A stretch of 64,000 nt of DNA, taken from Acidobacteriota bacterium (GTDB lineage: Bacteria > Acidobacteriota > UBA4820 > DSQY01). The position numbers were made by a program, and so were the translations under genes. Of this stretch, positions 14,747-62,950 are shown piece after piece. Every line of letters starts with the position of its first letter. Position 1 is the stretch's first letter. The notes beneath the pieces were generated by a model. It did no database searches. It was not told where the DNA came from and saw only the letters and a list, made by a program, of their open reading frames with translations. The stretch covers positions 1,341-65,340 of the forward strand of contig JAJYCJ010000005.1 in NCBI GenBank assembly GCA_021778515.1, given 5' to 3'.

Positions 14747-15017
14747 ACGGCCATGAACTCCAGGAGGCAAAGAACGTGAGGGCCGTCACAAAAGCCGCTT
14801 CCAGCAAGCCTTTAGCCTTGCATCGCTGGAAACGCCGCAATACACTGTATTTGAATGTCATTTTTCCGCCACGAGAGGAGTCTGCTCGCAATTCCCCGGG
14901 AGGCGGCATGAGGAAGGCTCCATGGATCATAGACCATCCCCATCCACCCGCGACCCGGCCTTGCACCGTGGGCGGAGACCCGGACCGATGAGACGAGAGC
15001 CGGGCTCGGAGGGAATC

Positions 15018-44413: not shown

Positions 44414-45589
44414 CTAGAGTTCCCTCAGGGCCGTCGCCACGGGCATCCGGGCCGCGCGCAGGGCCGGCAGGAGGCCGCCGAGGAAGCCCATGACCAGGGC
44501 GAAGAGCAGCCCTTTCGCCAGAAGATCCGGCGTCACCCTGAAGGCGAAGGCGATCTGCGAAAAGCTCTGCCAGTTGAGGGTAGAGGTGGTCAACCCGTTG
44601 ACGGGCAGCACCACGACGCAGCCCAGCAGGCCGCCGATCAGCGCGATGAAGAGGGCCTCCACCATCCAGGAAAGCACCACGCTCGCGCCTGAGAAGCCCA
44701 GCGCCCTCAGGGTGGCGATCTCCCGGGCCCTGGCTGCCACGGAGGAGTACATGGTGTTGAAGGCGCCGAACACTGCGCCGATGCCCATGACGGAGGCCAC
44801 CAGAAATCCCAGGACCCGTATCATGGTCGAGACGGCCCTGGACTGCTTGGCGTAGTAGTCCGTCTCGCGGTCGGCCTGCACCGTGAGGCGGGGATCGGAG
44901 GCCAGCGCCCTCTTGAAGTCACCCAGGGCGGCAGGAGAGGTCAGGCGAACCGTGACCGATGAGAAGATGTCCTCGGGACGCTTGTAGGTCTGGCTCAGCA
45001 CGGGCTGATCCGCCCAGACTTCCGAATCGAAGGCGCTTCCGCCCGAGTCCATGATCCCCACCACGCGCCAGGTCCGTCCCCCGAAGCTGGGGGTGTCCCC
45101 CAGGCCGAAGCCCGAGTACATCGTGGAGGCGCTCTTCCCCGCTACCAGCTCGGCCAGCCCCGGCCGAAGGAATCGCCCGCTCACGATGCGGACGCTGCGA
45201 TGGACCTTGAGGGCCTGCTCCGACACGCCGCGGACGGGCGCCAGCGCGTCCGAGTCGGAGGCGCGATGGTGGAAGGCCGCCACCACGAACACCTCGCCGC
45301 TCACCAGGGGGTGGCCCTCCTCGTCGTGGGCCACGCCGGGCGCTCCGGCGATCACCTGGAGCTGCTCCCGCGTCACCACCGATTCCATCTCCGTCGTGGC
45401 CCCCCCTCTCATGACGATGGCGTTCGAGGGTGAACCGGAGTCCACGAGGGTGAGCTGAAATCCCCTGGCCATGGAGAGCATGGCCACGAAGACCGCCACC
45501 ACCCCGGCGATGCCGAGGACCGCCACGAGGTTGCTGCGCCAGCGGGCCCTGACGCTGCGGACGTTGTAGATCAGGGGAATGGCGCTCAC
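44414..45589 (-). CDS. ABC transporter permease, FtsX/MacB-like (permease 2)
   Basis: N-terminal TM, large periplasmic domain, C-terminal three TM helices with the FtsX pattern. Confidence 0.75.
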   Translation of the reverse strand: MSAIPLIYNVRSVRARWRSNLVAVLGIAGVVAVFVAMLSMARGFQLTLVDSGSPSNAIVMRGGATTEMESVVTREQLQVIAGAPGVAHDEEGHPLVSGEVFVVAAFHHRASDSDALAPVRGVSEQALKVHRSVRIVSGRFLRPGLAELVAGKSASTMYSGFGLGDTPSFGGRTWRVVGIMDSGGSAFDSEVWADQPVLSQTYKRPEDIFSSVTVRLTSPAALGDFKRALASDPRLTVQADRETDYYAKQSRAVSTMIRVLGFLVASVMGIGAVFGAFNTMYSSVAARAREIATLRALGFSGASVVLSWMVEALFIALIGGLLGCVVVLPVNGLTTSTLNWQSFSQIAFAFRVTPDLLAKGLLFALVMGFLGGLLPALRAARMPVATALREL

Positions 45590-45710
45590 GGAAGAGGCCC
45601 TCCGGGCAGGGTCGCGAATGGCGGAATGCGAGCGGTCAGCTGAAGGAACGGGGAGCCTCTTCTCGCTTCCTCCCGCTCGACCTTCGCCCCTCGGCCTTCG
45701 CCACGCATGG

Positions 45711-46850
45711 TCACACCCTCCGCAGCGCTTCCACGATCTTGAGCCGCATGGCCAGGAGGGCGGGAATGATCCCCGAGACCACGCCGACCGCCACCGTGAG
45801 CGCCAACCCCAGGGCCATCTTCCCGGGGCTCAGGTAGAAGACCGGCAGGAGGCCTCCCGTGGGGTCTCCCCGAAGCGTGAAGAGCTTCACGGCCGCCAAT
45901 CCCAGCACTCCTCCCTGGAGGGCGTAGGCCACCGATTCTCCGAGCACCAGCCACAGCACCGATGCGTCGGTAAATCCGATGGTCTTGAGCACCGCGAGCT
46001 CCGCGGTCCGCTCGCGGACGGCCATGGCCATGGCGTTGCCGGTCACGAGGAGGAGGGTGAAGAAGACCACGCCCCCGATGACGAGAATGAGGAGCTGGAT
46101 GTTTCCCACCTGTTTGACGAATCCCGCGGCAAAGGCCTTCTCGCTCTCCGCCGACGTCTCCCACGGGGAATTGGCGAAGCGGCCGTCGATGGCCTCGGCC
46201 ACGCGGGCGGCCTCGTTCGGGTCGGCCACCTGCACCACGTACCAGCCCACCATGCCCTTGCCCCAGGCGCGGCGTTCTTCGAGATAGTCGCTCCGGAACC
46301 AGAACTGCGTGGTGTCGTCCTCGCTGCGCGCGGCGTCGTAAATGCCCCGGATGTTGAACTCCCAGACGCCCCCGAAGATGGAGGCCACCAGGGGAACCCG
46401 GTCTCCGATCTTCCAGCCGAACCTCTCTGCGGTCTTGCGCCCCACGATGCATCCCTCCCGGTCCTGGAGGAAGGCCTCCCACTCCCCCCGCGGCACCTTG
46501 AACTCGGGATAAATCTTGAGCCAGGTCTCCTTGTACACCGCGAACTGGGGGAAGAAGTTCTTTGGATCCTGGTAGTACCCGCCGAACCAGGTCGCATAGG
46601 TCACCGCCTTGACGCCGGGGATCTGGAGCATCCGCTCCCTGTACGAAACGGGAAGGGGCATGATGAGGGAGACCTTGTTGCGGACCACCAGGCGGTCGAC
46701 GCCGGCCACCTCCACGCCCTGGTTGAAGGCCGTCTGAATGGCCGCCAGAAGGCCGTACAGGAAGAGGGCCACCGCGAAGGAGCCTATGGTCAGCGTGGTG
46801 CGGACCTTCTTCCTGCGCAGGTTCGACCAGATCAGGGCGAAGTACTTCAT
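45711..46850 (-). CDS. ABC transporter permease, FtsX/MacB-like (permease 1)
   Basis: Start [18 protein letters not shown]. Same architecture as its neighbour. ATGA overlap with the ATPase gene. Confidence 0.75.
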   Translation of the reverse strand: MKYFALIWSNLRRKKVRTTLTIGSFAVALFLYGLLAAIQTAFNQGVEVAGVDRLVVRNKVSLIMPLPVSYRERMLQIPGVKAVTYATWFGGYYQDPKNFFPQFAVYKETWLKIYPEFKVPRGEWEAFLQDREGCIVGRKTAERFGWKIGDRVPLVASIFGGVWEFNIRGIYDAARSEDDTTQFWFRSDYLEERRAWGKGMVGWYVVQVADPNEAARVAEAIDGRFANSPWETSAESEKAFAAGFVKQVGNIQLLILVIGGVVFFTLLLVTGNAMAMAVRERTAELAVLKTIGFTDASVLWLVLGESVAYALQGGVLGLAAVKLFTLRGDPTGGLLPVFYLSPGKMALGLALTVAVGVVSGIIPALLAMRLKIVEALRRV

Positions 46851-47596
46851 CTCTCCGCCGGCTTGCTCGCGGGCCCGCTGCGCTCCGGCCCGCTCGTGGT
46901 TCCCTCCACGAGCGCGCCCTTCTCCATGTGGAGCACCACTTCGGCCCTCTCGGCCGCCCTGGGATCGTGGGTGACCATGAGCACCGTCTTGCCGTAGCGC
47001 GACGAGAGGGCCGACAGCAAGGCCAGGACCTCGTCGGCGCTTCGCCGGTCCAGGTCTCCCGTGGGCTCGTCGCACAACAGGAAGGTGGGGTCCGCCACGA
47101 TGGCCCTAGCTATGGCCACGCGCTGCTCCTGGCCGCCCGAGAGCTGGCGGGGGTAATAGTCGGTCCGGTCACCAAGCCCCACGAGGGCCAGGGCCGTCTC
47201 CACGTGCCGGCGCCGCTGGGGCTTGGTGAGGCGGGTCAGCATGAGCGGCAGCTCCACGTTCTGAAAAGCCGTCAGCACGGGCAGGAGGTTGTACATCTGA
47301 AAGATGAACCCCACGTGGCGGGCCCGCCAGTTGGCGAGCTTGGGCCCAGAGAGGCGCGTGATCTCGTCGCCGGCGACGGTGATGCTCCCCGCCGTCGGCA
47401 GATCCAGCCCCCCCAGGAGGTTGAGCAAGGTCGTCTTTCCCGAGCCGCTGGGGCCCATGAAGGCCACGAAATCCCCCTCATCCACGCAGAGGTTCAGGCC
47501 CTGCAGGACGTGCACGTCCTGGCCGCCCCGGCGGTAGGTCTTATCGAGGTTGCGGACCCGGATGAGCGCATCGCCGTTATCGTCAAGTCTGACCAT
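46847..47596 (-). CDS. ABC transporter ATP-binding protein (MacB/LolD-type)
   Basis: Walker [10 protein letters not shown], signature [14 protein letters not shown], Walker [12 protein letters not shown]. Confidence 0.85.
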
Positions 47597-47704
47597 CGAA
47601 GCGGCCCCCTCGTTGCTTCCATTGAAAGGGAATCCGAGGCGGGCCGGGGAAAGATCTGGCACCCCGCGGTCCGAGCGTCACTCGAACCGCTTCCCCAGCC
47701 CCGC

Positions 47705-48931
47705 TCAGGACCCCTTCACCTTGACGCGCTGGCCGTCTCTCAAGTGATCCACCCCCGAAACGGCCACCACGTCTCCCGGTGAGAGGCCTTCGAGGATCTC
47801 AACCTCGGAGCCCCGCTTCTCGCCCAGCTTCACCGGCGTGATCCGGAGCCTGCCGTCGAGCACCTTGAACGCCACTGGGCCTCCGTTCCCGGCCCGCACC
47901 GCGGCGGCCGGCACGAGGGCCTTGGCCTTGCCCGGCTTCAGGGCTTCGGGATTCAGGAAGGCCACCTTCGCCCCCATGTCCGGCAGGATCCTAGGGTCCA
48001 GGCGGTCGAACGCGATGCGCACCTTCACCGTGGCCTTCTGACGGTCCGCCGTAGGAATGACCGTTCGCACCTTGCAGGGAATCTGCCAGTCGGGGTAGGC
48101 ATCCAAGGTCGCCACCACCTCCTGGCCGGGCTCGACCTTGGCGATGTAGGACTCGTTCACGTCCACTTCGATTTCCAGGGAGGACATGTCGACGATGGTG
48201 GATATGCCGGTTCGCGTGAAACCTCCTCCGGCCGAGACGGGGGAGACGATCTCCCCGGGCTGGGCGTCCTTGGACACCGCCACGCCCGCGAAGGGGGCCC
48301 GGATGACGCAGTTGTCGAGGTCCCTCCGGGCGACGGCCATCCGGGCCACGGCGGCCTGGACCTGGTCCCGCTGGAGGACGACCTGGGCCTTGAGGCCGTC
48401 CACGGAAGCCCGCGCCTGATCGAGGCTCTGCTGGTCGGCGTAGCCGCTGGCGGCCAGCGCGCCGGTCCGGCGCAGCTCCCGCTCCGCCTCGGCCAGGTCC
48501 ACCCGGAGCTTGGGGATGGCCGCGGCCGCCACCAGGCGGTCCGCCACGGCGGCCTGGTAGGCCGCTCGCGCGTCCGAGTCGTCCAGCCGCGCGAGCACCT
48601 GGCCCGCGGTCACGTGCATCCCCTCCTCCACCAGGACCTCGCTGACCCTGCCGGTGACCTTGGCCGCCACCGTGGCCTTGCGCCTGGCCGTCACGTAGCC
48701 GCTGGCGTTGAGCACCGTCGCGGCCTCCACGCCCGAGGCCGGACGGACGGCCGCGGTCTCCACGGACACCGTTCGAGTGGAGGCCCAGGCCGCGATGAGC
48801 AGGAGGATCAGCACCGCGACGGCGCCAGCGGCGATCCACCAACGCCGCGAAAGGCGGCCGCTTCCCCGCTCCGCCGGATCGATCTTCAAAGCCGATAGGT
48901 CCGGCGCGCCGGACTCCCGCTCTTCGTTCAT
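47705..48931 (-). CDS. Efflux transporter periplasmic adaptor subunit (HlyD/MacA family)
   Basis: N-terminal TM anchor, coiled-coil hairpin, beta-barrel and MP domains. Start MNEERES. Confidence 0.8.
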   Translation of the reverse strand: MNEERESGAPDLSALKIDPAERGSGRLSRRWWIAAGAVAVLILLLIAAWASTRTVSVETAAVRPASGVEAATVLNASGYVTARRKATVAAKVTGRVSEVLVEEGMHVTAGQVLARLDDSDARAAYQAAVADRLVAAAAIPKLRVDLAEAERELRRTGALAASGYADQQSLDQARASVDGLKAQVVLQRDQVQAAVARMAVARRDLDNCVIRAPFAGVAVSKDAQPGEIVSPVSAGGGFTRTGISTIVDMSSLEIEVDVNESYIAKVEPGQEVVATLDAYPDWQIPCKVRTVIPTADRQKATVKVRIAFDRLDPRILPDMGAKVAFLNPEALKPGKAKALVPAAAVRAGNGGPVAFKVLDGRLRITPVKLGEKRGSEVEILEGLSPGDVVAVSGVDHLRDGQRVKVKGS

Positions 48932-49007
48932 CGCCCTTCCTTCCCCCAGGCCTTTCAACCTTCCGTTCTTCCTTCGGCCGCCAACCTTGCCACGCAGAGG
49001 CCGCGGG

Positions 49008-49526
49008 TTACGCAACGCCTCCGCCCAGCCCGAAGGACTCCCAGCCGCCCCTGAGGGTGCGCACCCTCAAGAGACACTCCGGCAGGTCGAAACGGAGGGT
49101 CCGGCCCTGGCTCCCCCCCGTCAGTTCGAGCGCCAGCGGCACGGCGCCTTCCGCAAGCAGGGCCCTGAGTCGCTCCACATTCCTGGCCCCTATGCCCGTG
49201 TCCAGGAGCTCCGCTCCCTGGAACAGCCGGGCACCGCCCACCAGGGCCGCCCTCATTCGAGCCGGTCTCGCTCCTACGCCCACGAGGGCCTTGGACAGGG
49301 AGGGTAGCGCCTCCACTCCGTACTTGGCCGGCAGGCCTGCCCGCTCGGTCCCCCGGGGGGGTTCGCCGGGCAGCAGCACGTGGGCCAGCCCGCCGACCCC
49401 GGCCTCGGAGTCGTACAGGAGCAGCGCCACGCAGGAACCGAGCCCGTACACCGCCAGCGAACAGGCCCCGGTTTGAACGCAGAGCTGGCCGATGAAGACG
49501 GTGTGTACCGGCCTGTTATCCTCCAA
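49008..49526 (-). CDS. cheD: Chemoreceptor glutamine deamidase CheD
   Basis: ..AVYGLGSCVALLLYD..GGLAHVLLP.. CheD core. No cheC or other che genes nearby. Confidence 0.75.
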   Translation of the reverse strand: MEDNRPVHTVFIGQLCVQTGACSLAVYGLGSCVALLLYDSEAGVGGLAHVLLPGEPPRGTERAGLPAKYGVEALPSLSKALVGVGARPARMRAALVGGARLFQGAELLDTGIGARNVERLRALLAEGAVPLALELTGGSQGRTLRFDLPECLLRVRTLRGGWESFGLGGGVA

Positions 49527-49782
49527 GGAACTCCCTCACGCCGGGTTTCAGGAAGAGCTCCTCCAGGTTCGCGCCGGCCACCTCCCGGCGGACGAGCTCG
49601 GCCTTCTCCTCGGCATCCAGGTACCGGTTCACGATCAGCACCTTTCGGCCCCTGACCACGCAGAGGGCGCCGGCGCTCCGTATCCGGGAGGTCTCGCGGA
49701 AGTCGATCCCCATCTTGCGAAGAGCCTCCTTGAGCTCCTCGAGGAACGCCTCCCACTCCTTCCGGTTCCAGCGGCGGCTCAC
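49516..49782 (-). CDS. Small hypothetical protein (88 aa), coupled between the LeuA-like gene and cheD
   Basis: Overlapping start and stop codons with both neighbours. No recognisable motif. Confidence 0.3.
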   Translation of the reverse strand: MSRRWNRKEWEAFLEELKEALRKMGIDFRETSRIRSAGALCVVRGRKVLIVNRYLDAEEKAELVRREVAGANLEELFLKPGVREFLGG

Positions 49783-51898: not shown

Positions 51899-53083
51899 TC
51901 AGGCGCGTTCGAGCAGGAGCGCCATGCCCTGGCCTCCGCCGATGCAGGCCGACGCAACGCCGAATCGCACCCCGCGCCGGCGCATTTCGTACAGCAGGGT
52001 GATCACGAGCCGCGTTCCCGTGGCCGCGAGCGGGTGTCCGAGGGCGATGGCGCCCCCATTCACGTTCACCTTTTCGCGGTCCAGTTCCAGGGCCTTCTCG
52101 CAGGCGAGATACTGCGCGGCGAAGGCCTCGTTGATCTCGAAAAGATCGATCTGATCCTTCGTCAGGCCCTCGGCCTTGAGGAGCTTCTGGATGGCCGGAA
52201 CGGGACCGAATCCCATGATGGAGGGCTCCACCGCCGAATAGGACCAGCCCCTCAGGAATCCCAGCACGGGCCATCCGTGGCGTGCCGCCGTCTCCTCCTT
52301 GGTGACGACGGTGGCCGCGGCGCCATCCACGATCCCGGAGGCGTTGCCCCCCGTCACGCTCCCCTCCTTTCGGAAGGCGGGCCGGAGCTTCGAGAGGGCC
52401 TCGAAGGTGCTCTCCGGCTTTCGATGCGTGTCCTCGTCGAAGAGGACCTCTCCCTTCCGCTTGTCTTTGAGCGGAACGGGCGCCACTTCGTCGGCCAGCC
52501 TGCCCGCCCGGCGCGCCTCCTCGGCGGTCCGCTGGGAGCGGATCGCGAGGCGGTCCTGATCTTCCCTGGATATGGACCAGCGCTCGGCCAGGTTCTCCGC
52601 CGTGACGGCCATGGGGAGTTTGCAGTAGCTGTCGGTCAGGGATTCCATGAGGGTGTCCACGAAGGGCGCGTGCCCCAGGCGCAGCCCCTGCCTGGCGCCG
52701 CGCACCGCGTAGGGGGCCTGGCTCATGCTCTCGGTGCCCCCCGCGAGCACCACGGAGGCCTCGTCGAGCAGGAGCATGTGGGCCCCGCTCACGATGGCCT
52801 GGAAGCCCGAACCGCAGAGGCGGTTCACGGTCAGGGCGGGAACCTCCACGGGGATCTCCGTCCTCAGCCCGATGTGGCGCGCCAGGTAGATGGCATCCTC
52901 GCAGGTCTGCAGGACGTTCCCGAAGACGACGTGGTCCACCTGGCCGGGCTCCACCCCCGTCTGGTCGAGGACGGCCCTGGAGGCGTGCACGCCGAGGTCC
53001 ACGGCCGAGAGATGAGCCAGCTCCCCGTTGTATTCCGCCATGGGAGTCCGCCGGCCTCCCACCAAGACGAGTCCCTTTCTCAT
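51899..53083 (-). CDS. Acetyl-CoA C-acetyltransferase (thiolase II)
   Basis: ..NRLCGSGFQAI.. active-site Cys and ..NVNGGAIALGHPLAATG.. thiolase signatures. Confidence 0.9.
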   Translation of the reverse strand: MRKGLVLVGGRRTPMAEYNGELAHLSAVDLGVHASRAVLDQTGVEPGQVDHVVFGNVLQTCEDAIYLARHIGLRTEIPVEVPALTVNRLCGSGFQAIVSGAHMLLLDEASVVLAGGTESMSQAPYAVRGARQGLRLGHAPFVDTLMESLTDSYCKLPMAVTAENLAERWSISREDQDRLAIRSQRTAEEARRAGRLADEVAPVPLKDKRKGEVLFDEDTHRKPESTFEALSKLRPAFRKEGSVTGGNASGIVDGAAATVVTKEETAARHGWPVLGFLRGWSYSAVEPSIMGFGPVPAIQKLLKAEGLTKDQIDLFEINEAFAAQYLACEKALELDREKVNVNGGAIALGHPLAATGTRLVITLLYEMRRRGVRFGVASACIGGGQGMALLLERA

Positions 53084-53886
53084 GCGTCACCCCCCTTTTT
53101 CTGGCTCGGCTCCACGAATTTCACCCGCAGCGTGCCGAAGCCCACGTGGCTTCCGGACTTGATCGGCGTGAGGATGCCGGTCGGGATCCTCTTGCCGTTC
53201 ACGAAGGTCCCGTTGAGCGTCCCCACCTCTTCGACGATGTAGAACTGCCCGTTGCTGTGAATCAGCTTGGCGTGCCGCCGGGAAACGCTTCGCTTCACGT
53301 CCTCGTCCGTGAGGTCCACGTCGGGAACCACCCCCGTCACGGGGTCGCGTCGCCCGATCAGGGAGATGTCCCTGTGGATGGGGAAGACCTTGAGCGATCC
53401 CTCCATCAGGAACTGCGCGATCACGGGGGGCCTCTCCTGTTCACCGGCCGCCTCTTCGTGGGAGGCCGGCGCCACCTCGTCGCCCGCAGGGGGCATGGCC
53501 TTCCCCTCCTCCAGCAGGTGCTTCTGGAACTGGTCCGTCGTCTCCCTGAGCCGGGCCGAGAGCTTCCTCAGCATGCGGACCGCGATCTCGATGTTGCTCT
53601 TGATCATCTGATCGAAGGTGGCGCCGTTGATGACGATAACCTCGGCGTCTTCCACCACCTCCGCGGTGGCGGTCCTGGGAATCCCTTCGAGGAGGCTCAT
53701 CTCGCCGAAGAAGTCGCCCTTCTCCATGACCCGGAGAAACCGCTTCTCACCGCCCACGAGCTTATAGATCTCGACGCGGCCGGACTGGACGATGAACATC
53801 TCCGCCCCCGGCTCTTCCTCGTAGAAGATGATCTCTCCCTTGCGGTAAGGGACCATGAAATCCTTGAGAGGATGGGCCATGTACAC
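53080..53886 (-). CDS. Cyclic-nucleotide-binding (CAP_ED) + FHA domain protein
   Basis: N-terminal ..FFGEMSLLEGIPRTATAEVVEDAEVI.. cNMP-binding signature. C-terminal FHA (..ISLIGRRDP..SRRHAKLIHSNGQFYIVEEVGTLNGTFVNGKRI..). Stop overlaps the thiolase start. Confidence 0.7.
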   Translation of the reverse strand: MYMAHPLKDFMVPYRKGEIIFYEEEPGAEMFIVQSGRVEIYKLVGGEKRFLRVMEKGDFFGEMSLLEGIPRTATAEVVEDAEVIVINGATFDQMIKSNIEIAVRMLRKLSARLRETTDQFQKHLLEEGKAMPPAGDEVAPASHEEAAGEQERPPVIAQFLMEGSLKVFPIHRDISLIGRRDPVTGVVPDVDLTDEDVKRSVSRRHAKLIHSNGQFYIVEEVGTLNGTFVNGKRIPTGILTPIKSGSHVGFGTLRVKFVEPSQKKGGDA

Positions 53887-53942: not shown

Positions 53943-56900
53943 TCACGGCCCCTTGAGCACGAGCTGGCCCGACTCCGCCTCATCGATGGCCCGCAGGAAC
54001 TGGGCGAAGGCTTGGTAATGGTCGGGCCACACGATCTCGTACGGGATCTCCACGCGCCTTTGGATCACCAGCCGGCCTCCCTCCATGCGGCCCTTCAAAA
54101 GGTAGCTGCCGAACGGGGTCTTGAGATCGAGATCCTGCAGTCGGTAGTCCGTGCTGAATCCGGGCGGCAGGACGATGGTTATCTCCTGGTTGATGAAGAC
54201 GGGGCCGCCCGTGGTCAACGGGAGCGTGCGATCTTTCAGGCTTGCGAAGGCCTGCGCCAGGTGCAGCGCCGGCAGCGGGTCGGCCACGGTGAGACGGCCA
54301 CCCACCTCATCGGCGTAGGCTCTTACGAGAAGCCTGTAGTTCCAGTGCAGAGGCTTCAGGATGTCGTCCAGCCCCTCCAGGTGATATTCCTTCAGGTCGA
54401 TGTCCCCGTAGCGCTTGGACAGGGCCACCTGCATGACGCGCTGCCACTGGTCCTTGGCGATCTTGTTGAGGCTGGAGCGAAGGTTTTCGGAGACCTCGGG
54501 GTCCAGGGAGGACAGGTAGTCCAGCTCCATGTCCCCGTTGGGCTGGAGGGTTCTCACCTCGGTCTCTTTGGCCGACTTCCAGGGAGAGAAGTCCGCGGGA
54601 ATGGTCACGCGCTTCCAAGGCTCGTCGGAGGTGATGTCCAGCGCCCGGGCCCCCTGGAGGTACCAAGGGAGGACGTCGGGAGCCCTGAAGGGGCTGGAGA
54701 GCACCATGTACCGGGGCGGTGCTCCCTTGAGATCCACCTCCAGGACGGGATAGCCGAACTGTCCGAGGCGCGGCAGGTTGTCCCCCGCCCGGTCCGGCAC
54801 GGCCTCGGCTATGAGCACGCGGAAGGGAATCCCCGCCAGCCGGAGGAATGCGCACATCACGGGCAGGCGGCTCCCCTGTCGGGTCAGCAGGGTCTGCGTC
54901 GGGTCCTGCCACGAGGTCTGATTCTCGCCGTCGATCGCCTGGAGGACGTACTTCACCATGCGGCCGAGCTTCTGCTCGGGGGTGGACGCGTCGCCCACGG
55001 CCTCCCTGTATCGCTGCTCCAATTCGGGGGTCACTTGAAAGGCGCCGGTGATTCCGTCCTTGAGGAAGAGCCCCACGTCCTTCCAGTCGATGCCTCCCAC
55101 CGCCTCCACCATGGGCAGGAAGAGCATGCGGTTGGGCGTGTCGGGCTCGCGCGGCGCCCGCGGCATGTCCCGATAATCCCAGTCCCTGTAGAGGAGGTTC
55201 CCGACGGTTCCCGAAGTCCCCGGCGAAGGCAGGTGCTTCTCAGCGAACTGCATGGGGATGGACTTGGGGTACTCGATGAACCACTGGGTCCTGTGGAACG
55301 GCTTGTCGATGTCTTGGAACAGCCACACCTGGGAGGTGACGTAGGCGTTCTTCTTGACGAAAGTGGGTGGCTTCAGGGTGATGTACTCGTACTCCACCAG
55401 GTCGCCCGGTTCGAGCCCCTGAAGGCTGATGGTGCTCTTGTCGGGGATCTGCTCGGGCTCCAGGATCCTGCCGTCGGGCTTGATGGTGCGTATGGAGAGG
55501 ATCACCTGCCCCGGAAGCGACTGCTCGCCCTCCCGGTCCACCCCCTCCTTGTCGTTGATCCTGAGGATGCCGTGGTAGCGCTCGAGGGAGGAGCCGTCCG
55601 GTTCGACCCGCGTGAACATCTGGTCCAGGAGCATGGATGAGGGCGCCTTGTCCGGCGCGGAAGACTTGTCCTCCTTGAGGACCTGCTCCAGGGAGACGTG
55701 CTTGTCCTGGAACGGCCACGGCTGGCCGAGGGCCATGCGCGCAAGGTCCACCTGGAAGGCGTCGGGCTTGGCCTTCTTCAACTCCTCCCACACCTTGAAC
55801 CCCGCCGCGCGATCTCCCATGAGGAAATCGCACCGCGCGAGCTGCAAAGCCACGTCCACGTCCGATCGGTCCAGGGCCAGGAGCCCATCCAGACGGGTTT
55901 TCGCGGCCGCGTACCGGCCCAGACGCACGTCCACGCCGGCCAGCCTGTAGTCGAACTGGCGGTCGCGGTCCCCGAAGCGCTTGGCCTCCTCCAGCAGGAG
56001 CGCGTGGAGCTGGGGCCACTGCCGGGTGCCCGAGTAGAACTCCTCGAGCTCGGGGTCGGCGTCGCGCAGCTTTTCCAGCCGGCGGATCGCCTCCATCTGT
56101 CCCCTGGGATCCGGGAGCTGCTGGAAATAGGAGATCCACGCCGTCTCGACGCTCTCGCATTCGGGATGGTAGGAGGAGGCCTCCTCCAGGACCTTGCGTG
56201 CATCCACGATCCAGCCGCGCCCTTCGAGTCTCTGTGCGAGGGCAACGAACCACCGGGGATCGGTGGGCGCGTCGTGCACGAGCTTCCGCAAGGCGATCAG
56301 GTCGTCGTCCGAATCTGAGTTCGCCCCCTGAAGGACGGCCTTGAAGTAGGTCGCCATGGGGGTGTTCGGCGCAAGCTCCAGGCACCGGTCCACGAACCGT
56401 TCGGCCCTGCTCTGCGCGATCTTCTGCGGAAGGTCGTCGGCTTCGAGCAGGTAGAAGCGGGCCGCCAGCAAGTTCCACAGGAAGCACTTGGGGGCCTGGT
56501 CGGCGGCCGCCTCCATGGTGAGGCGCCCGCTGGCCACGTCGCCCTGCCACCGCTGCCAGAGCGACAGGAATGCCTGGCGGCGGGGATCGTCCTTGGGGAA
56601 GGCGGCCGGGAAGGCACCCTGCCAGTCCCCTTCGTCCTTGAATCCCGCCGTCGGACCCGCGGGGGGCTGGGCTCCCTGCGGCACCACGATGGCGAGCGGG
56701 TCGCCCTCCGCGTCGAGGAGCGCCAGGTGGATCCCCTGGTCGCCGCCCGTGGCGTGGACCTTGATGAGCAGCCGGTGCGCCCCGGCAGAGAGGGCCACAC
56801 GGCGCACCACCGTCGGATTCTCCTGAATGTTGAACACGTCCTTGGTCAGCAGGACCTTGTCGTCCAGGATCACGCGGAAGCTCTTGGAGGCGTTGAAGTA

Positions 56901-57620
56901 GAGCAGCGCCTCCTGGGGCTTGTCCACGGTGAACGGCACGAGAATGTAATAGTTGGATTCCCGGTTGCGCACCGTGGCGTACAGGGGCGGGCGGACGTCG
57001 ACCGTGCGGAAGGTGGTCCGCGTCCACTTCTCCGAATCGAGCTTGCCCTGCTCCGCAGGAGAGGCCTTGTAGAAGTCGATCCGGCTCAGCGTCGTTTCAG
57101 GGCGGGAGTAGTAGGCCGCCGAAACGAATCCGGACTCGGCCATGGCCTTCTTACTCGACTCCGGATCGCCCGAGCGGGCGGCGAGCTGGAAGCCCAGCCA
57201 GCGCAGGTTGAACCGCACCAGCGGGTCCAATCCCTTCTCCTCGGCCAACTGCGGGATGGAGTCCCTCACGAGGCGGGTGCTGGCCTGGTCGAAGGTGGCG
57301 TCGTCGCTGATGAAATCCTGGAGCAGGAAAGTCAAGGGGCTGGAGGGGGCGTTGCGGAGCCCCTCAACCGCCGTCACGAGAGACTTTTCACGCTCTCCCT
57401 TGGCCTCCTCCAGGAGGGCCAGGGCGTAGCTGGTCGAAGCATCGCTGTGGTCACGCTCCAGGTCCCTCCTCAGGGCCGCCTCCGCCTCGGCGGGGCTCTT
57501 CCCCTCCAGCAGAGCCTGCCACCCGGGGGTCAGTCCGGAGCCCCAGACGGCCGGGGAGAGAGAGATCCCGATGGTCAGTGCGACGGCCCAGAAGCTCGGA
57601 CGGATGTTGCGGCGCGTCAT
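53943..57620 (-). CDS. Large secreted TPR / DUF3857 / transglutaminase-like / DUF3858-type protein, paralog B (1225 aa); catalytic Cys apparently absent
   Basis: Signal peptide. Same architecture as the upstream paralog, but the core aligns as ..TRQGSRLPVMCAFLRLAGIPFRV.. against ..FGDCKDKAILTAAMLRQAGLDA.. in paralog A, so the G-x-C nucleophile is not conserved. Confidence 0.65.
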   Translation of the reverse strand: MTRRNIRPSFWAVALTIGISLSPAVWGSGLTPGWQALLEGKSPAEAEAALRRDLERDHSDASTSYALALLEEAKGEREKSLVTAVEGLRNAPSSPLTFLLQDFISDDATFDQASTRLVRDSIPQLAEEKGLDPLVRFNLRWLGFQLAARSGDPESSKKAMAESGFVSAAYYSRPETTLSRIDFYKASPAEQGKLDSEKWTRTTFRTVDVRPPLYATVRNRESNYYILVPFTVDKPQEALLYFNASKSFRVILDDKVLLTKDVFNIQENPTVVRRVALSAGAHRLLIKVHATGGDQGIHLALLDAEGDPLAIVVPQGAQPPAGPTAGFKDEGDWQGAFPAAFPKDDPRRQAFLSLWQRWQGDVASGRLTMEAAADQAPKCFLWNLLAARFYLLEADDLPQKIAQSRAERFVDRCLELAPNTPMATYFKAVLQGANSDSDDDLIALRKLVHDAPTDPRWFVALAQRLEGRGWIVDARKVLEEASSYHPECESVETAWISYFQQLPDPRGQMEAIRRLEKLRDADPELEEFYSGTRQWPQLHALLLEEAKRFGDRDRQFDYRLAGVDVRLGRYAAAKTRLDGLLALDRSDVDVALQLARCDFLMGDRAAGFKVWEELKKAKPDAFQVDLARMALGQPWPFQDKHVSLEQVLKEDKSSAPDKAPSSMLLDQMFTRVEPDGSSLERYHGILRINDKEGVDREGEQSLPGQVILSIRTIKPDGRILEPEQIPDKSTISLQGLEPGDLVEYEYITLKPPTFVKKNAYVTSQVWLFQDIDKPFHRTQWFIEYPKSIPMQFAEKHLPSPGTSGTVGNLLYRDWDYRDMPRAPREPDTPNRMLFLPMVEAVGGIDWKDVGLFLKDGITGAFQVTPELEQRYREAVGDASTPEQKLGRMVKYVLQAIDGENQTSWQDPTQTLLTRQGSRLPVMCAFLRLAGIPFRVLIAEAVPDRAGDNLPRLGQFGYPVLEVDLKGAPPRYMVLSSPFRAPDVLPWYLQGARALDITSDEPWKRVTIPADFSPWKSAKETEVRTLQPNGDMELDYLSSLDPEVSENLRSSLNKIAKDQWQRVMQVALSKRYGDIDLKEYHLEGLDDILKPLHWNYRLLVRAYADEVGGRLTVADPLPALHLAQAFASLKDRTLPLTTGGPVFINQEITIVLPPGFSTDYRLQDLDLKTPFGSYLLKGRMEGGRLVIQRRVEIPYEIVWPDHYQAFAQFLRAIDEAESGQLVLKGP

Positions 57621-60600
57621 GGCTTACCTCCAGCCAGCTGAACCCGCAAGCGCTCTCCCGCGGCCTTGTCGGCCGCCTGGCAGAAGGCCCTGAAAGCCGG
57701 ATAGTCCTGGGGGCTCACCTCGCGGACGCCGAGTTCCACCGTAAGTTTCACCGACACCTGCCTCTCTCCCCCGCTGAAGGTCCTGGTGACCGACCCGAAG
57801 GGCGTATGGATGGACACCGGTGCCATGGCCTTGGCGGTGGCTCCTCGAGGCAGCGTGAAGGTGACGTCGTACTCCTGCACCCAGGGGTAGTCGATCTCGA
57901 GCGGATAGTGCCGCTGGGCCAACGCGGCGAAGCCGGCGAAGAGATTGAGCTGGCCCATCCAAACCGGAAGCGAGACCTCGTGCTCCCCGTCGGGGCTGAC
58001 CACCTGGCCCAGCGTGCCATCGAAGGAGAAGGTGACGGGCGAGGAGAGGTCCGCCAGGTCGCTCGCGGTGGCGCTCGAAAGGTGCGTCCCCGGAAAGGCG
58101 CCCGAGATGTCCTTTTCGAGCTGCTCCCTCAGCTTGTCCTTGTCCTGAAAGCGCCGCCGGAGCCAGGCGCACTGCTGGCCGATCACGGTGACCGCGCCCC
58201 GCGCCTCGGCCGAGGTTCCCGAGGCCGGGACCTCCACCCGGTAGACGGCACGGTATTGATTGTCGGCCGCCTTGTCCACGGGCGTCTCCATCCGCTTGGT
58301 GCGGCCGTCGGGCCATACGAGCTGCACCCAGACGCCCTGATCCTGGTAGGGCAGCTCGTGGAGACCCGAGTACTCCGCGGTCCCATCCAGAAAGAGGTTC
58401 AGCTCAGGCACGTAGGTGATGGCGTGGTTGAAGATCGCCAGGGACGCCGGCGTCGGGTAGATGCTCCCCAGGTCCCGCGTCCGGACGAGCACCATGCAGG
58501 CGTCCAATCCGGCCTGGCGGAGCATGGCCGCCGTCAGAATGGCCTTGTCCTTGCAGTCGCCGAACCGACGCTCGAAGATCTGGCCCACCTTGTACGGACG
58601 GAACCCGTGGACCCCGAACTCCAGGCCAACGTAGTGCGTCTGCTGGACCACCCAGCGGTGGATGGCCGACACCTTGGCCTCCGTGGTGGTGGCGCCCTGA
58701 ATCAGCTCGGCCACCTTGGCCTTCACCTCGGGCGTCACCTGCCACTGGTCGCTGATGAACTTGGCGTACCAGGCCCCCATCGCGTCCCAATCCTGGAAGG
58801 TGGAAACGTGGAGGTAGGGAAGGACGTCCGTGAAGCCAGGCATGTCCGGCTCCTGCTCCACCTGCGGGATGTCCCGCACCACCCACCGGTAGATCTTCTC
58901 CGAACTGCGGGTCACGACAATGGGCTCGGTGCTCAGCCGCTCGGCATGAACGTAGAGGGGCAGGTCGGACGGCATGATCAGGGTGTACTGCTTCAGGAGG
59001 ATGGGGCTCTGCCCGGCGAAGGTCTCGATGTCGCCGAAGTACCGTCCGTACTCGTTGCGCTCGCCGATGTCCGAGATCTTGTATTCGATCCAGAGGCGGT
59101 CGCCGGCGCTGAGCGAAGGGAAGGAGAGCACCATGTTCCGATTGCGGTAGTAGAGGCGGTACCGGGGATCGGAGAGCGCGTCCGTCACCATGACGTCGGC
59201 GTGAACCTTCGTCCCGTCGGGCTTCAGGATGGAGGCATCCAGGATGCGCACCTCCTGCCGGTCGGGGTCGAAGGTGATGGGCCAGGTCTGAAGCTGCTGC
59301 GCGGCCGCAGGCTGGAGGACCTGTATCACCATCTGCACGTAGCGGCTCGACAGTCCGCTGGGCTGGACCTTGATGGCCGTGTTGTCCAGCAGCACCACCG
59401 CCTGCTGCCCGGAGAAGGTGCCTAGGGCCGTGGGAAGGTCCTTCGGCTCAACCCTGTACTGGCTCTCGAACCCCTCCCCCTGCGGGCTCAAAAAGGACAC
59501 CTTTCGCTTGACGGATTCCATTTGCGGTCGCAGGGTCAGCGCTGCCTGGTACTCGGCGAGCGCCTTGGAGGAGTCGCCCAGGGCCCTCAGCAGATCGCCC
59601 TGCAGGTCATGCCCCTCGGGCCAGTCGGGGCACCATTTCAAGGCGGCGGCTACCAGTCCTTCGGCCTCCTTCGGCTGGTTCTGCGCGAGAAGGTAGGAGG
59701 CATGCCGGTAGATCAGCATGCGGTCCAGGGGGAACCGGGCCTCCATCTGGGTGAAGAGTTCGAGAACCCGGCCGGTGTGTCCCGTTCGGACCTCATCGGC
59801 GATGGCATCGTACCAGGCGCCCGTGTCTTCTTGATGGGTCTCGCGGTAACGCTCCATCGTCTCGGTTTCCTGCGCCGGGTCGCCCAGCTTTCTGAGGGAG
59901 GCCAGGTAGGCCAGCTGGACCACGGCGCAGCCCGGATGGGCCGAATAGAGCGCCTGAAGATCGGCGTCGCCGATGCCTTCGCTGGCGAACTGTAGCCGGA
60001 CCTGGCACTGCAAGGCCCTGGTGGGCAGACAGTCGGGTTCGGCCGCCACGGCGCGGTCGAGGTACTGGAGGGCAGGAAAGGGCATGCCCCGATCCAGGTA
60101 GTGGCGGGCCATCCGCTCCAGGGCCAGGGGGTTCTTGGGAGCGACGTCCAGGGCCTTCTGGTAATCGGCCCTGCGCTTGTTGTGATCCCGTTCGGCATCT
60201 CCCAGCACCAGCCAGGGAACGGGGTCGCTTGAGGAGGCCTCGGCAGCCTTGCGCAGGATCTCCAGGTGGGAGGTATCGCCTCGGTCGAACGTCCTCATGG
60301 CCAGGAGGTACTGGCCGTAGTCTTCCAGGCTTCCGGCATCGGGGTGAGATTCCGAACGGGCCTTCAGCGCCTCGCCCGGATCGTTCACCTCCATGCCCTT
60401 GGGAGGCAGACCGTTCTTGGCCAGGACCTTGTCCAGCGGCTCCTTCACCGCCGCCGGGTCGGAGGTCGAGGTCCATCCGGAGAGCGGCCGCCCCTTTTCA
60501 TCCGTGAGGCGAAGCTCGAAGTTCCATCCCCCGTCGCTGTTGCAGACCTTCACGAGCAAGGCATTCCAGCCCTTGCGAAGGGTGCACCCGTCGGCGAATT

Positions 60601-61282
60601 GGTCAAAGGCCCTTCCGTTGTATCGCTTCCGGCTGGCGACCAGGTCGCCGTCGACCCACAGCTTGTAGGCCTCGTTGTAGCCGCCCCGCAAGACGCACGG
60701 CGTGTCCTTCGGCACTCTGATGAAGGTGAGGGCGTAGCCCGCCACGTTTTCCGTGGGGTCCATGACCTGGTCCAGGGGGACTACGCCGTTCACCAGCCGC
60801 TCGGGGACGGCCCTCCAGCTCACGGGGTGGGACTTGGCCACGTAGGAGGCCCCCATGTCGAGCTTGGTCTCGGGGGGATAGACGGCGTCGAAGCCCTGCT
60901 TGTTCTCGTCGTCGAAGGGGCCGATGACCCGCCAGGAGAGGACGTAGCCCATCTGCGCCTCCAGGCGTTGCGCCTCCTGGACCTTCCCGAGGTCGCGGTC
61001 CTGCCGGGCGAGAAGGTGCGCCACCTGGGCTTTCACCTCCGGCGCCGCATCGGGGGCATTCAGGACCTGCTGGAGCGCTTTTTCGAAGGCCGCCGGCGAA
61101 TCCGTCGCATCCAGGTACCCATAGGCGCGATAGAGGGCCACGATGGCCCGGGCCTGGCCTCGCCAGGCCCACAGGTCCGCCAGGGCGGCCCGCTGGAGGT
61201 CTTGAACGGTGTCGGCTCGGGCGACCAATCCCAGCGCGAGCGCGACGAGAAAAAGGACGGAGACGCGACGACGGCGCATCAA
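57617..61282 (-). CDS. Large secreted TPR / DUF3857 / transglutaminase-like / DUF3858-type protein, paralog A (1221 aa); Cys-containing core
   Basis: Signal peptide MMRRRRVSVLFLVALALGLVARA. TPR region. Transglutaminase-like core ..RRFGDCKDKAILTAAMLRQAGLDACMVLVRT.. Confidence 0.7.
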   Translation of the reverse strand: MMRRRRVSVLFLVALALGLVARADTVQDLQRAALADLWAWRGQARAIVALYRAYGYLDATDSPAAFEKALQQVLNAPDAAPEVKAQVAHLLARQDRDLGKVQEAQRLEAQMGYVLSWRVIGPFDDENKQGFDAVYPPETKLDMGASYVAKSHPVSWRAVPERLVNGVVPLDQVMDPTENVAGYALTFIRVPKDTPCVLRGGYNEAYKLWVDGDLVASRKRYNGRAFDQFADGCTLRKGWNALLVKVCNSDGGWNFELRLTDEKGRPLSGWTSTSDPAAVKEPLDKVLAKNGLPPKGMEVNDPGEALKARSESHPDAGSLEDYGQYLLAMRTFDRGDTSHLEILRKAAEASSSDPVPWLVLGDAERDHNKRRADYQKALDVAPKNPLALERMARHYLDRGMPFPALQYLDRAVAAEPDCLPTRALQCQVRLQFASEGIGDADLQALYSAHPGCAVVQLAYLASLRKLGDPAQETETMERYRETHQEDTGAWYDAIADEVRTGHTGRVLELFTQMEARFPLDRMLIYRHASYLLAQNQPKEAEGLVAAALKWCPDWPEGHDLQGDLLRALGDSSKALAEYQAALTLRPQMESVKRKVSFLSPQGEGFESQYRVEPKDLPTALGTFSGQQAVVLLDNTAIKVQPSGLSSRYVQMVIQVLQPAAAQQLQTWPITFDPDRQEVRILDASILKPDGTKVHADVMVTDALSDPRYRLYYRNRNMVLSFPSLSAGDRLWIEYKISDIGERNEYGRYFGDIETFAGQSPILLKQYTLIMPSDLPLYVHAERLSTEPIVVTRSSEKIYRWVVRDIPQVEQEPDMPGFTDVLPYLHVSTFQDWDAMGAWYAKFISDQWQVTPEVKAKVAELIQGATTTEAKVSAIHRWVVQQTHYVGLEFGVHGFRPYKVGQIFERRFGDCKDKAILTAAMLRQAGLDACMVLVRTRDLGSIYPTPASLAIFNHAITYVPELNLFLDGTAEYSGLHELPYQDQGVWVQLVWPDGRTKRMETPVDKAADNQYRAVYRVEVPASGTSAEARGAVTVIGQQCAWLRRRFQDKDKLREQLEKDISGAFPGTHLSSATASDLADLSSPVTFSFDGTLGQVVSPDGEHEVSLPVWMGQLNLFAGFAALAQRHYPLEIDYPWVQEYDVTFTLPRGATAKAMAPVSIHTPFGSVTRTFSGGERQVSVKLTVELGVREVSPQDYPAFRAFCQAADKAAGERLRVQLAGGKP

Positions 61283-62148
61283 ACACCCCTCAAATAGGCG
61301 GGCCGCAGCGGGAGCGACCCACGCTCGGCGGCCCTGATGGCGGAGAGAATCTTGAGTGTGTCACGCGAGAGACGGCCGCCTATGGGAAGCGGGTTGGACG
61401 CGTGATTGGCCCTGAATACCGTGTCTTTGAGATCCAGCGCCCCCACCAGCAGCCCCAGTTCGCGGATGAGGGCGAGATCGCCGGGCAGCGAGAACGCCGA
61501 GGCGGCCATCTGACGGAATAGCGGCGCCTCGGGAACGGGGAACCACGCCAGCACGGAGAGGTAGTGGGGTTGAATGGCGTTCACCGCGCGGGCCGTCGCC
61601 AGGGCGTGTTCCTCCGATCCCTCGCTCCCGCCCAGCCCCAGCAGAACCATCACCGAGGAGCGCAGCCCGGCATCCTGTCCGCGGCGAATGGCCTCCACCG
61701 CAGATGCGGCATCGATCCCCTTGGCCGCGCGGCGGAGCACCGCATCGCTCCCCGATTCCAGCCCTACGTAGAAGAGGGTCAACCCCGCGCCCGCAAGCGC
61801 CCTCAGCTCCTCCGGAACCTTGGACAGGAGGTTCAGGGGCGTGGCGTAGAGGCTCACCCGCCTCAGCTTCGGGAAGGCCGCGGAGAGAGAGCGCAGGATC
61901 TCCATCAGGTGCTCGGTGGGCGCCGCCAGGGCGTCCCCGTCCGCCAGGAAGACCCTCGCCGTCTCGGGCCAGAGACGTCCTGCTTCGGCGATTTCATCCA
62001 GCATCTCGTCCAGGGGCCGTACCTCGAAGCGCTTGTTGCGGTACATGGCGCAGAAGGTGCACGTGTTGTGGGAGCAGCCGACGGTGGCCTGGAAAATAAG
62101 GCTGTCGGCCTCGGAGGGGGGTCTGAAGACCGGTTCTTGGTAGCGCAT
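61279..62148 (-). CDS. Radical SAM protein
   Basis: Start MRYQEPVF (ATG at complement 62146-62148). CSHNTCTFC (C-x3-C-x2-C). ATGA overlap with the downstream transglutaminase-like gene. Confidence 0.7.
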   Translation of the reverse strand: MRYQEPVFRPPSEADSLIFQATVGCSHNTCTFCAMYRNKRFEVRPLDEMLDEIAEAGRLWPETARVFLADGDALAAPTEHLMEILRSLSAAFPKLRRVSLYATPLNLLSKVPEELRALAGAGLTLFYVGLESGSDAVLRRAAKGIDAASAVEAIRRGQDAGLRSSVMVLLGLGGSEGSEEHALATARAVNAIQPHYLSVLAWFPVPEAPLFRQMAASAFSLPGDLALIRELGLLVGALDLKDTVFRANHASNPLPIGGRLSRDTLKILSAIRAAERGSLPLRPAYLRGV

Positions 62149-62194
62149 CGTCCCTCGGCGACAGCTCGTAGTGTAGCCCCCCTCCCCCGGGCGG

Positions 62195-62857
62195 TCAAAC
62201 CTCCGCCGGAAGGCGGACGTCGGGCGGGCGCACATAAGTGGGGAGGAGCCTCGCGGTGGGCTCGCCCGAAGCCATGGCGGCGAGCGCCACCCGGGCGGCG
62301 GGTACGGCGAGGTTCGGGACTTCGCCGATGAGCCGGCACTCCCCAGGCCAACCTCGCACCAGCGCCACCCCGTCTCCTGCCGCCCACGTCGGCGACGGCA
62401 TCTCATCGAGTACCCGTTCCGCCGCCAGCGCCCCTGGCTCCCCCAGGGACATCACGTCCCCCTCTCTCCTGAGAAACCGCTGGCAGTAAACCTGGGAGCG
62501 GCGCGCATCCATGACCGCCAGCCCGGCCCCCTCGGCCTGCACGGCGAGGGCGATGGCCCTGAGGCTCTGAAGGCCGTACGCCGGAATGGAGAGGGCGCGG
62601 GAGAGGCCCAGGGCGGAGGCCAGGCCGATGCGCAGGCCGGTAAAGGAGCCGGGGCCCGTGACGGCACCGATGGCGCACAGATCCCCCCGCCCGGCTCCGC
62701 AGCCGGCGAGAAGGGATTCGAGGGCCGGGACGAGCCGCGTGGCATGGGTCGCGGTGGCCTCTTCGCGGGCCGCGACCACCGCCCCGCCCTCATCCACGAG
62801 GGCGAGGCCGAGCCTGCGGGTACTCGTATCCACTCCCAGCGCAAACCTTGGGTTCAC
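62195..62857 (-). CDS. tsaB: tRNA threonylcarbamoyladenosine biosynthesis protein TsaB (YeaZ)
   Basis: ..ALGVDTSTRRLGLAL..GPGSFTGLRIGLA.. is TsaB-like. Confidence 0.75.
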   Translation of the reverse strand: MNPRFALGVDTSTRRLGLALVDEGGAVVAAREEATATHATRLVPALESLLAGCGAGRGDLCAIGAVTGPGSFTGLRIGLASALGLSRALSIPAYGLQSLRAIALAVQAEGAGLAVMDARRSQVYCQRFLRREGDVMSLGEPGALAAERVLDEMPSPTWAAGDGVALVRGWPGECRLIGEVPNLAVPAARVALAAMASGEPTARLLPTYVRPPDVRLPAEV

Positions 62858-62950
62858 TGCAACACCCCTTCCGGCGACACTCTCCGCCAGATCAAAACGA
62901 AAAGGGGGCCTGACCAGCAGGCCCCCACCATTCTACCCTTTCGGGCCTTT

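Follow-up and report, generated by a model that had tools for sequence, protein, structure and literature searches.

Gene organization of the locus

The stretch of DNA analyzed here (the window; 64,000 nucleotides, positions 1,341 to 65,340 of contig JAJYCJ010000005.1, GenBank assembly GCA_021778515.1, from an Acidobacteriota bacterium) carries on its minus strand a gene for a radical-SAM enzyme (rSAM), followed by genes for two large paralogous proteins, here called A and B, that combine tetratricopeptide repeats (TPRs) with a transglutaminase (TGase)-like core. This report concerns the pair formed by A and B, whose catalytic sites differ, and the extent to which the rSAM belongs with it. All positions are window coordinates. 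The rSAM gene (61279 to 62148; 289 aa; Pfam Radical_SAM, E = 1.4e-19) is followed by A (57617 to 61279; 1,220 aa), in which a predicted signal peptide, an N-terminal beta-rich domain, TPRs, DUF3857, the TGase-like core, and DUF3858 succeed one another, and then by B (53943 to 57620; 1,225 aa), which has the same architecture with a TGase-like core that lacks the catalytic residues.

A first-pass annotation, made from the DNA letters and their translations, had described three tightly packed, co-directional minus-strand genes joined by ATGA overlaps at both junctions. The packing is borne out by a listing of open reading frames (ORFs) and a frame test based on G+C content at third codon positions (GC3), which gave the expected GC3 signature in this genome of 65 to 68% G+C and placed rSAM, A, and B within an uninterrupted run of minus-strand genes. 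The stop of A and the start of B do overlap in ATGA (57617 to 57620), whereas the letters at the rSAM/A junction (61279 to 61282) read TTGA. A probably starts at the ATG at 61279, so that within TTGATG (61277 to 61282, minus strand) the TGA stop of the rSAM gene and that ATG overlap by 1 nt, as TGATG.

Domain architecture and predicted fold of A and B

Sequence comparison indicates that A and B are full-length, ancient paralogs. BLASTP aligns their C-terminal 600 aa at 22% identity (E = 5e-16) and also matches the N-terminal beta-rich and TPR regions to each other, in a separate alignment with an E value of 5e-5. Pfam finds TPRs in both proteins, together with DUF3857 (E = 2e-28 in A and 2e-8 in B) and sub-threshold matches to DUF3858. 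Transglut_core (PF01841; cut-off, 23 bits) is matched by A at 36.3 bits (E = 7e-9) and by B at 14.3 bits, which is below the cut-off (E = 0.05), so that the membership of B in the TGase-like fold rests on an AlphaFold2 (AF2) model and a Foldseek comparison. The models of A (residues 614 to 1220) and B (residues 641 to 1225) have predicted local distance difference test (pLDDT) values of 90.7 and 90.2, respectively. For both, the top Foldseek match in the PDB is 3KD4, with an E value of 1.5e-34 and a template modeling (TM) score of 0.83 for A and an E value of 4e-27 and a TM score of 0.71 for B, and in both the match spans the entire DUF3857-core-DUF3858 module; the model of A also matches 3ISR, a putative cysteine protease. 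Since the best match of B is the same as that of A, the fold appears, as far as the models go, to be retained in B. The common build of TPRs, DUF3857, TGase-like core, and DUF3858 that the annotation had assigned to both proteins is borne out.

Both proteins had also been described as secreted. Their N termini have a basic n-region and then a hydrophobic stretch (MRRRRVSVLFLVALALGLVARA followed by D in A and MTRRNIRPSFWAVALTIGISLSPAVWG followed by S in B) and, by inspection, look like Sec signal peptides. Searching the N-terminal beta-rich domain (about residues 110 to 275 of A) by profile against PDB sequences returned nothing significant (best E value, 0.5), and Pfam gave weak matches to RhaB_D2 in 3 of 10 members (best E value, 0.0012); these suggest a jelly-roll or sandwich fold, short of establishing it. 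A match of A to Exo_endo_phos (E = 0.016) and a match to the anti-phage protein ProA (12 bits) were taken as noise.

Catalytic residues in A and their loss in B

The triad region of A (58376 to 58564, minus strand) contains Cys909 in the motif FGDCKDKA (58541 to 58564), His952 in FNHAI (58415 to 58435), and Asp965 in LFLDGTA (LDGT; 58376 to 58396). Across all fetched loci, the Cys-His-Asp triad is present in 48 of 48 distinct A-type sequences; the three columns are also invariant in alignments A4 and A6, and the nucleophile lies within an invariant RRFGDCKDKA motif. Because the triad is complete and lies in this invariant setting, A is a candidate cysteine enzyme.

In B, the segment TRQGSRLPVMCAF (54846 to 54884, minus strand) aligns to the nucleophile site of A, and a 3-residue deletion replaces D-C-K, so that the aligned site reads RQG, the gap, and then SRLPVMCAF. 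The B of the window has no aligned His or Asp either, those columns being occupied by Tyr and Val, and in the window's clade B additionally lacks 5 residues around the His. Every one of the 82 distinct B-type sequences in the fetched loci has the gap at the Cys column. The triad is likewise kept in A and missing from B in the four ortholog pairs of related genomes and in distant pairs. When 1.84 billion cluster representatives were searched exhaustively by phmmer with the C-terminal half of B, 2,331 matched at an E value of ≤1e-3, including 299 at ≤1e-30, and the Cys is absent in all 147 of the top B-like representatives (50%-identity clusters) that span the core. The contrast between FGDCKDKA in A and QGSRLPVMCAF in B, from which the first-pass annotation had proposed an active enzyme and a pseudoenzyme, is thus upheld by alignments with orthologs, and the aligned catalytic Cys in B that would have spoken against it was absent from every ortholog and distant homolog examined.

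B might still be enzymatically active through another nucleophile, such as the Cys of VMCAF, or through another catalytic arrangement. In the window's own clade this Cys, 8 residues C-terminal to the lost nucleophile, is conserved, and 54 of the 82 B-types keep the third residue of the triad, Asp. However, the VMCAF column is Lys in 45 of the 82 and Cys in only 16, which argues against a replacement nucleophile; only 20 of 82 have a Cys anywhere from 12 columns before the site to 15 columns after it. The His column holds Tyr, Ser, or Val in most B-types, and the residues around it are those deleted in the window's clade. An active B is therefore extremely improbable, and the pairing of an active enzyme with a pseudoenzyme is very probably a conserved one.

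Conservation of the A-B pair across lineages

A word-indexed search with B brought up 23 close and a few distant orthologs. Scanning metagenomes with a profile of B yielded 80 loci, which were then typed by their catalytic columns. With 31 contigs set aside as too short to decide pairing, 57 loci were informative, 50 of them with A upstream of B. The stop of A overlaps the start of B (NTGA or TGATG) in approximately 44 of the 50 pairs, which suggests that the two proteins are probably made in fixed proportion. The arrangement also extends to two loci (L084 and L085) in which B is only about 20 to 25% identical to that of the window: an A-type gene is directly upstream with a 4-nt overlap, and there is no 289-aa rSAM. 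Five further loci were selected through A-type proteins only and are hence free of bias toward B; four of them still have a B-like gene directly downstream of A.

A profile of the A module matches 894 proteins at an E value of ≤1e-10. Named A-type proteins come mostly from Myxococcota (Anaeromyxobacteraceae, Myxococcus, Corallococcus, Pyxidicoccus, Hyalangium, Vulgatibacter, and Polyangiales), and the assignment of most pairs, which are on metagenome contigs, to Myxococcota rests on the names of these database proteins. At the Myxococcota-type loci, the pair is preceded by proBA-rsfS-rlmH-gpmI-comF and followed by convergent hemW-like and GST genes; its surroundings in the window's clade are metK, ahcY, tsaB, and thiolase genes. 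Given these housekeeping neighborhoods, the pair looks like a vertically inherited core function and not a mobile accessory module.

A and B could alternatively be independent tandem duplicates, with B a non-catalytic binding protein and the overlap a matter of compact operon structure. Several observations favor this and weigh against a fixed partnership. The other 7 informative loci (L139, L142, L155, L131, L148, L149, and L140) have a solo B-type gene, with 3 kb or more of sequence ahead of it and no A within several kilobases, and one locus (L167) has an A-type gene without an adjacent B; the A-B partnership is thus common and not absolute. The solved homolog 3KD4, a single protein that shares the fold, likewise lacks the Cys, which indicates that catalytically dead members of the fold can act alone, and the 22% identity between A and B implies a long divergence. 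However, the A-then-B order and the overlap have been maintained even though A-types in the pairs diverge down to about 35% identity and B-types down to about 25%, and both partners, at approximately 1,200 to 1,300 aa each, have kept their full length and all of their domains in parallel. We therefore regard independent duplicates as unlikely and a partnership between A and B as the better account.

Two other features of the Myxococcota-type loci were observed. A ComF-like phosphoribosyltransferase gene is upstream of A in 23 loci. In 38 loci, a gene for a 383-aa HemN_C/HemW-like rSAM (identity, 41 to 100%) is convergent and just downstream of B (for example, L169, 14785 to 15936; L171, 15343 to 16482; and L084, 13563 to 14723; 35 further loci have it as well), often with a GST gene after it. 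We considered this protein as a sign of a general link between the pair and rSAMs and rejected it, since it belongs to another family (HemN_C), is convergent, and is part of a housekeeping block. Its position beside B is probably synteny.

The rSAM family and its relation to the pair

The rSAM of the window scores 71.3 bits against PF04055 (cut-off, 29.5) and consists of the core domain only, with no B12-binding, SPASM, or GNAT domain found by Pfam or NCBIfam. Its cluster motif, CSHNTCTFC (62050 to 62076; residues 25 to 33), is of the form Cx4Cx2C and not the canonical CX3CX2C, and C25, C30, and C33 are the sole invariant Cys residues of a highly conserved family of 289 to 290 aa that is also marked by an N-terminal FRPPSEA and a C-terminal FR(S/A)NHASN. 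All NCBIfam models stayed well below their cut-offs; the best match, a partial one, scored 40 bits against 578, and the matches were to the cores of B12-type rSAMs. Compared with the cobalamin-dependent (class B) enzymes HpnJ, PhpK, and BchE, only the core aligns and a B12-binding domain is missing. Compared with the SPASM/twitch maturases of the anSME type, there is no SPASM match and linkage to A and B is seen in one clade only. Searching the PDB with a family profile gave only remote matches to the core, in 9CCB, OxsB (E = 7e-7), NocN, and Elp3 (E of about 7e-5).

A scan of one genome per species, with matches confirmed, found the family in at least 596 bacterial and archaeal species; the matches listed include Acidobacteriota, Planctomycetota, Bacillota, Pseudomonadota, Spirochaetota, Chloroflexota, and Myxococcota and, among the archaea, Nitrosocaldus, Ferroglobus, and Helarchaeota. 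The rSAM is thereby placed in a broad, uncharacterized, stand-alone family; it was not identified as a known housekeeping enzyme.

The first-pass annotation had coupled the rSAM to A and B in a candidate three-gene system, and this part of it did not hold. In 79 of 83 fetched rSAM loci there is neither an A nor a B within 10 kb. The other 4 are Acidobacteriota or Thermoanaerobaculia-like loci in which the rSAM is at least 61% identical and the whole tsaB-rSAM-A-B-cNMP/FHA-thiolase block is held in common, so that conservation of the three-gene unit was not found beyond closely related genomes. Seen from the pair, rSAM, A, and B occur together in 6 of approximately 85 pair or B-type loci, all but one (L161) belonging to one clade with the wider synteny block, and at least 40 pairs, distant ones included, have no rSAM of the 289-aa family nearby. 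In Holophaga and Geothrix, which are also Acidobacteriota, the pair is not near the rSAM.

The rSAM family does not have another regular neighbor. A conserved partner was sought by all-against-all clustering of ORFs within 4 kb in the 83 loci and rejected, the largest cluster being a generic ABC ATPase from 5 loci. When the gene directly downstream of the rSAM was scanned with Pfam in 55 loci, each family turned up in 2 loci at most. At two examined loci with next-closest rSAMs (about 52% identity), the following gene encodes a Peptidase_M14 carboxypeptidase (L002, 10855 to 12006) or a Peptidase_S13 D-Ala-D-Ala carboxypeptidase (L172, 10980 to 12473). Peptidases of the S13, M23, and U4 families each occur once or twice among the 55 downstream genes, which is too sparse for a theme. 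From its distribution and the neighbor scans, the rSAM family is thus one with different, non-conserved neighborhoods, an outcome that the annotation itself had named as speaking against its proposal, and we consider it likely that the rSAM is not a general component of the A-B system.

A link restricted to the clade is a separate matter. In such a three-component system, the rSAM would modify its target in the cytoplasm, ahead of export, the target being A, B, or a common substrate or cofactor. The anSME enzymes, which mature sulfatases, are a precedent for rSAM maturases of exported enzymes. Some of the data tell against treating the rSAM as a mere neighbor. In 9 of the clade's 10 loci, rSAM and A overlap in TGATG or TAATG over rSAM identities of 59 to 98%, with a conserved GAGGGG-like Shine-Dalgarno sequence inside the 3' end of the rSAM gene, which is more than loose synteny would give, and all clade contigs of sufficient length carry the three genes together. 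A second, looser co-occurrence, and the only one outside the window's clade, is found in an unrelated high-GC locus (L161, 2 to 4988), where a B-type gene, a 216-aa ORF, an inorganic pyrophosphatase gene, and an rSAM gene (49% identical, same strand, 1.1 kb downstream of the B-type gene) follow each other. However, besides the 79 rSAM loci from other taxa, the many pairs without the rSAM, and the lack of a recurrent neighbor, the protein has none of the SPASM/twitch or peptide-recognition domains that are typical of protein-modifying rSAMs, the block also holds the unrelated housekeeping genes tsaB, thiolase, and enoyl-CoA hydratase, and Myxococcota genomes (L059 and L071) have the rSAM family away from the pair. 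The conserved TGATG keeps a functional link within the Acidobacteriota clade conceivable; we nevertheless judge it quite unlikely and prefer to see the rSAM as a lineage-specific neighbor of the pair.

Neighboring genes and other features of the window

The rSAM, A, and B genes are adjacent, as annotated, but they are not an isolated unit, since the run of co-directional genes extends from a tsaB-like gene to an HMGL-like gene. The tsaB-like gene (62195 to 62857, minus strand; 220 aa; Pfam TsaD family, E = 1.9e-21) is 46 nt upstream of the rSAM gene, is syntenic in loci L001, L004, and L005, and is probably the first gene of the transcription unit. A strong terminator-like hairpin (62904 to 62926) is located just upstream of it. 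A sigma-70-like promoter match (TTGACC-17-TACACT; 62170 to 62198, minus strand) just upstream of the rSAM start is weak, being one site against 0.7 expected by chance. Downstream of B by 56 nt is a gene for a cNMP-binding and FHA protein identified by Pfam (53080 to 53886, minus strand; 268 aa), which is 64 to 95% identical in the clade loci and absent beside pairs elsewhere, and thiolase, enoyl-CoA hydratase, and HMGL-like genes follow in the same direction. A terminator scan of the locus found no terminator-like site after B. Together with the hairpin upstream of tsaB, this indicates that rSAM-A-B is part of a longer co-directional unit.

Three further features of the window were recorded. 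A 1,427-aa protein (21741 to 26024, minus strand) combines two adenylate/guanylate cyclase domains with a STAND/AAA_16 NTPase and TPRs; a cNMP-binding protein, the cNMP/FHA protein, is likewise encoded in the window, directly after B. A 1,935-aa predicted surface protein (14922 to 20729, plus strand) has DUF7948, SBBP beta-propeller repeats, PKD, and Big_7 domains. A MacAB-like export cluster (44414 to 49535, minus strand) comprises an HlyD-family adaptor, an ABC ATPase, and two FtsX/MacB permeases; it is preceded by a CheD-like gene and has the same direction as the rSAM-A-B operon.

Proposed function of the pair

We propose that A and B are a conserved, secreted complex of an active and a dead TGase-like protein, to which the rSAM is a lineage-specific neighbor, and give this reading as a whole a probability of about 0.6. 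The functional unit would be the two-gene set, A then B, and not the three-gene set. In it, A may be a cysteine peptidase, a transglutaminase, or an amidase that would carry out peptide-bond or isopeptide chemistry on a protein or peptide target. B would be a dedicated pseudoenzyme that has kept the fold and lost the nucleophile through the 3-residue deletion, and the His as well. Once exported to the periplasm or the cell surface, A and B may assemble into a heteromeric complex in which B and the TPR and DUF3857 surfaces could supply substrate binding, scaffolding, or regulation for the active site of A. The analyses show the architecture, the state of the triad, the predicted fold, the conservation of the pair, the stop/start overlap, and the distribution of the rSAM; from these we infer heterodimer formation, catalytic activity, the kind of substrate, and cellular location. 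For physical association between A and B, the odds are about even. The rSAM, for its part, would be a member of a ubiquitous stand-alone family that has become fixed directly upstream of A in one Thermoanaerobaculia-like clade of Acidobacteriota, where it would be co-transcribed with A and B, most likely as no component of their machinery.

In a bolder form of the proposal, A and B would be a hitherto unrecognized, vertically inherited heteromeric envelope enzyme of Myxococcota and some Acidobacteriota, a TPR-guided cysteine peptidase or protein cross-linker that needs its pseudoenzyme subunit, and the Thermoanaerobaculia-like clade would have taken on the translationally coupled rSAM as a maturase or partner devoted to it. 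We think this combination very unlikely; if true, it would be the first functional handle on a ubiquitous orphan rSAM family.

DUF3857/TGase-like proteins are common in soil bacteria, and to our knowledge none has a known function. The superfamily itself is known; what is new is that a DUF3857 TGase-like family is organized as an obligate-looking active/dead pair. Within one large subfamily, the genes are nearly always such a translationally coupled pair, far beyond a single window, which gives a domain of unknown function a genetically testable hypothesis, with orthologs in genera that have cultured members (Myxococcus, Corallococcus, and Anaeromyxobacter). The pair also adds a clean bacterial example of long-term pseudoenzyme retention. 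Conversely, the rSAM should not be annotated as a component of a TGase system on the strength of one lineage.

Comparison with known systems

The structural prototype of DUF3857/DUF3858 is 3KD4 (BDI_1141, a "putative protease" from Parabacteroides distasonis). Like it, A and B have a DUF3857 beta-sandwich, a transglutaminase/papain-like core, and DUF3858, and A also matches it in sequence (E = 1.3e-7). Unlike A and B, 3KD4 is a single protein of 506 aa with no N-terminal beta domain, no TPR solenoid, and no known paired paralog. It reads YGTPLEIA, without the nucleophile Cys, and so resembles B and not A.

Bacterial TGase-like cysteine proteinases, or the Transglut_core superfamily, were reportedly described by Makarova, Aravind, and Koonin in 1999 and by Ginalski et al. 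in 2004. A agrees with this superfamily in having Cys, His, and Asp in the canonical order and in its predicted export, and differs from it as described in pairing with a Cys-less paralog, in its DUF3857 flank and TPR fusion, and in its length of approximately 1,200 aa. Literature searches on DUF3857, DUF3858, and TPR-bearing TGase-like proteins of Myxococcus yielded incidental mentions in proteomics only and no paper on this family.

For the rSAM, the closest parallel in cluster motif is OxsB (PDB 5UL2), which uses Cx4Cx2C (PMC9204698); a Cx4Cx2C megacluster is listed in RadicalSAM.org (PMC9477430). The motif is invariant in the window's family as well, and its profile matches OxsB and Elp3. 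Unlike OxsB, however, the 289-aa rSAM has no cobalamin-binding domain, and unlike Elp3, it has no GNAT domain.

Pairs of an enzyme and a pseudoenzyme paralog are known as a general concept. A and B resemble them, by what is here an analogy of function only, in that the genes of an active and an inactive paralog lie next to each other and are expressed together, and the dead copy has long been retained.

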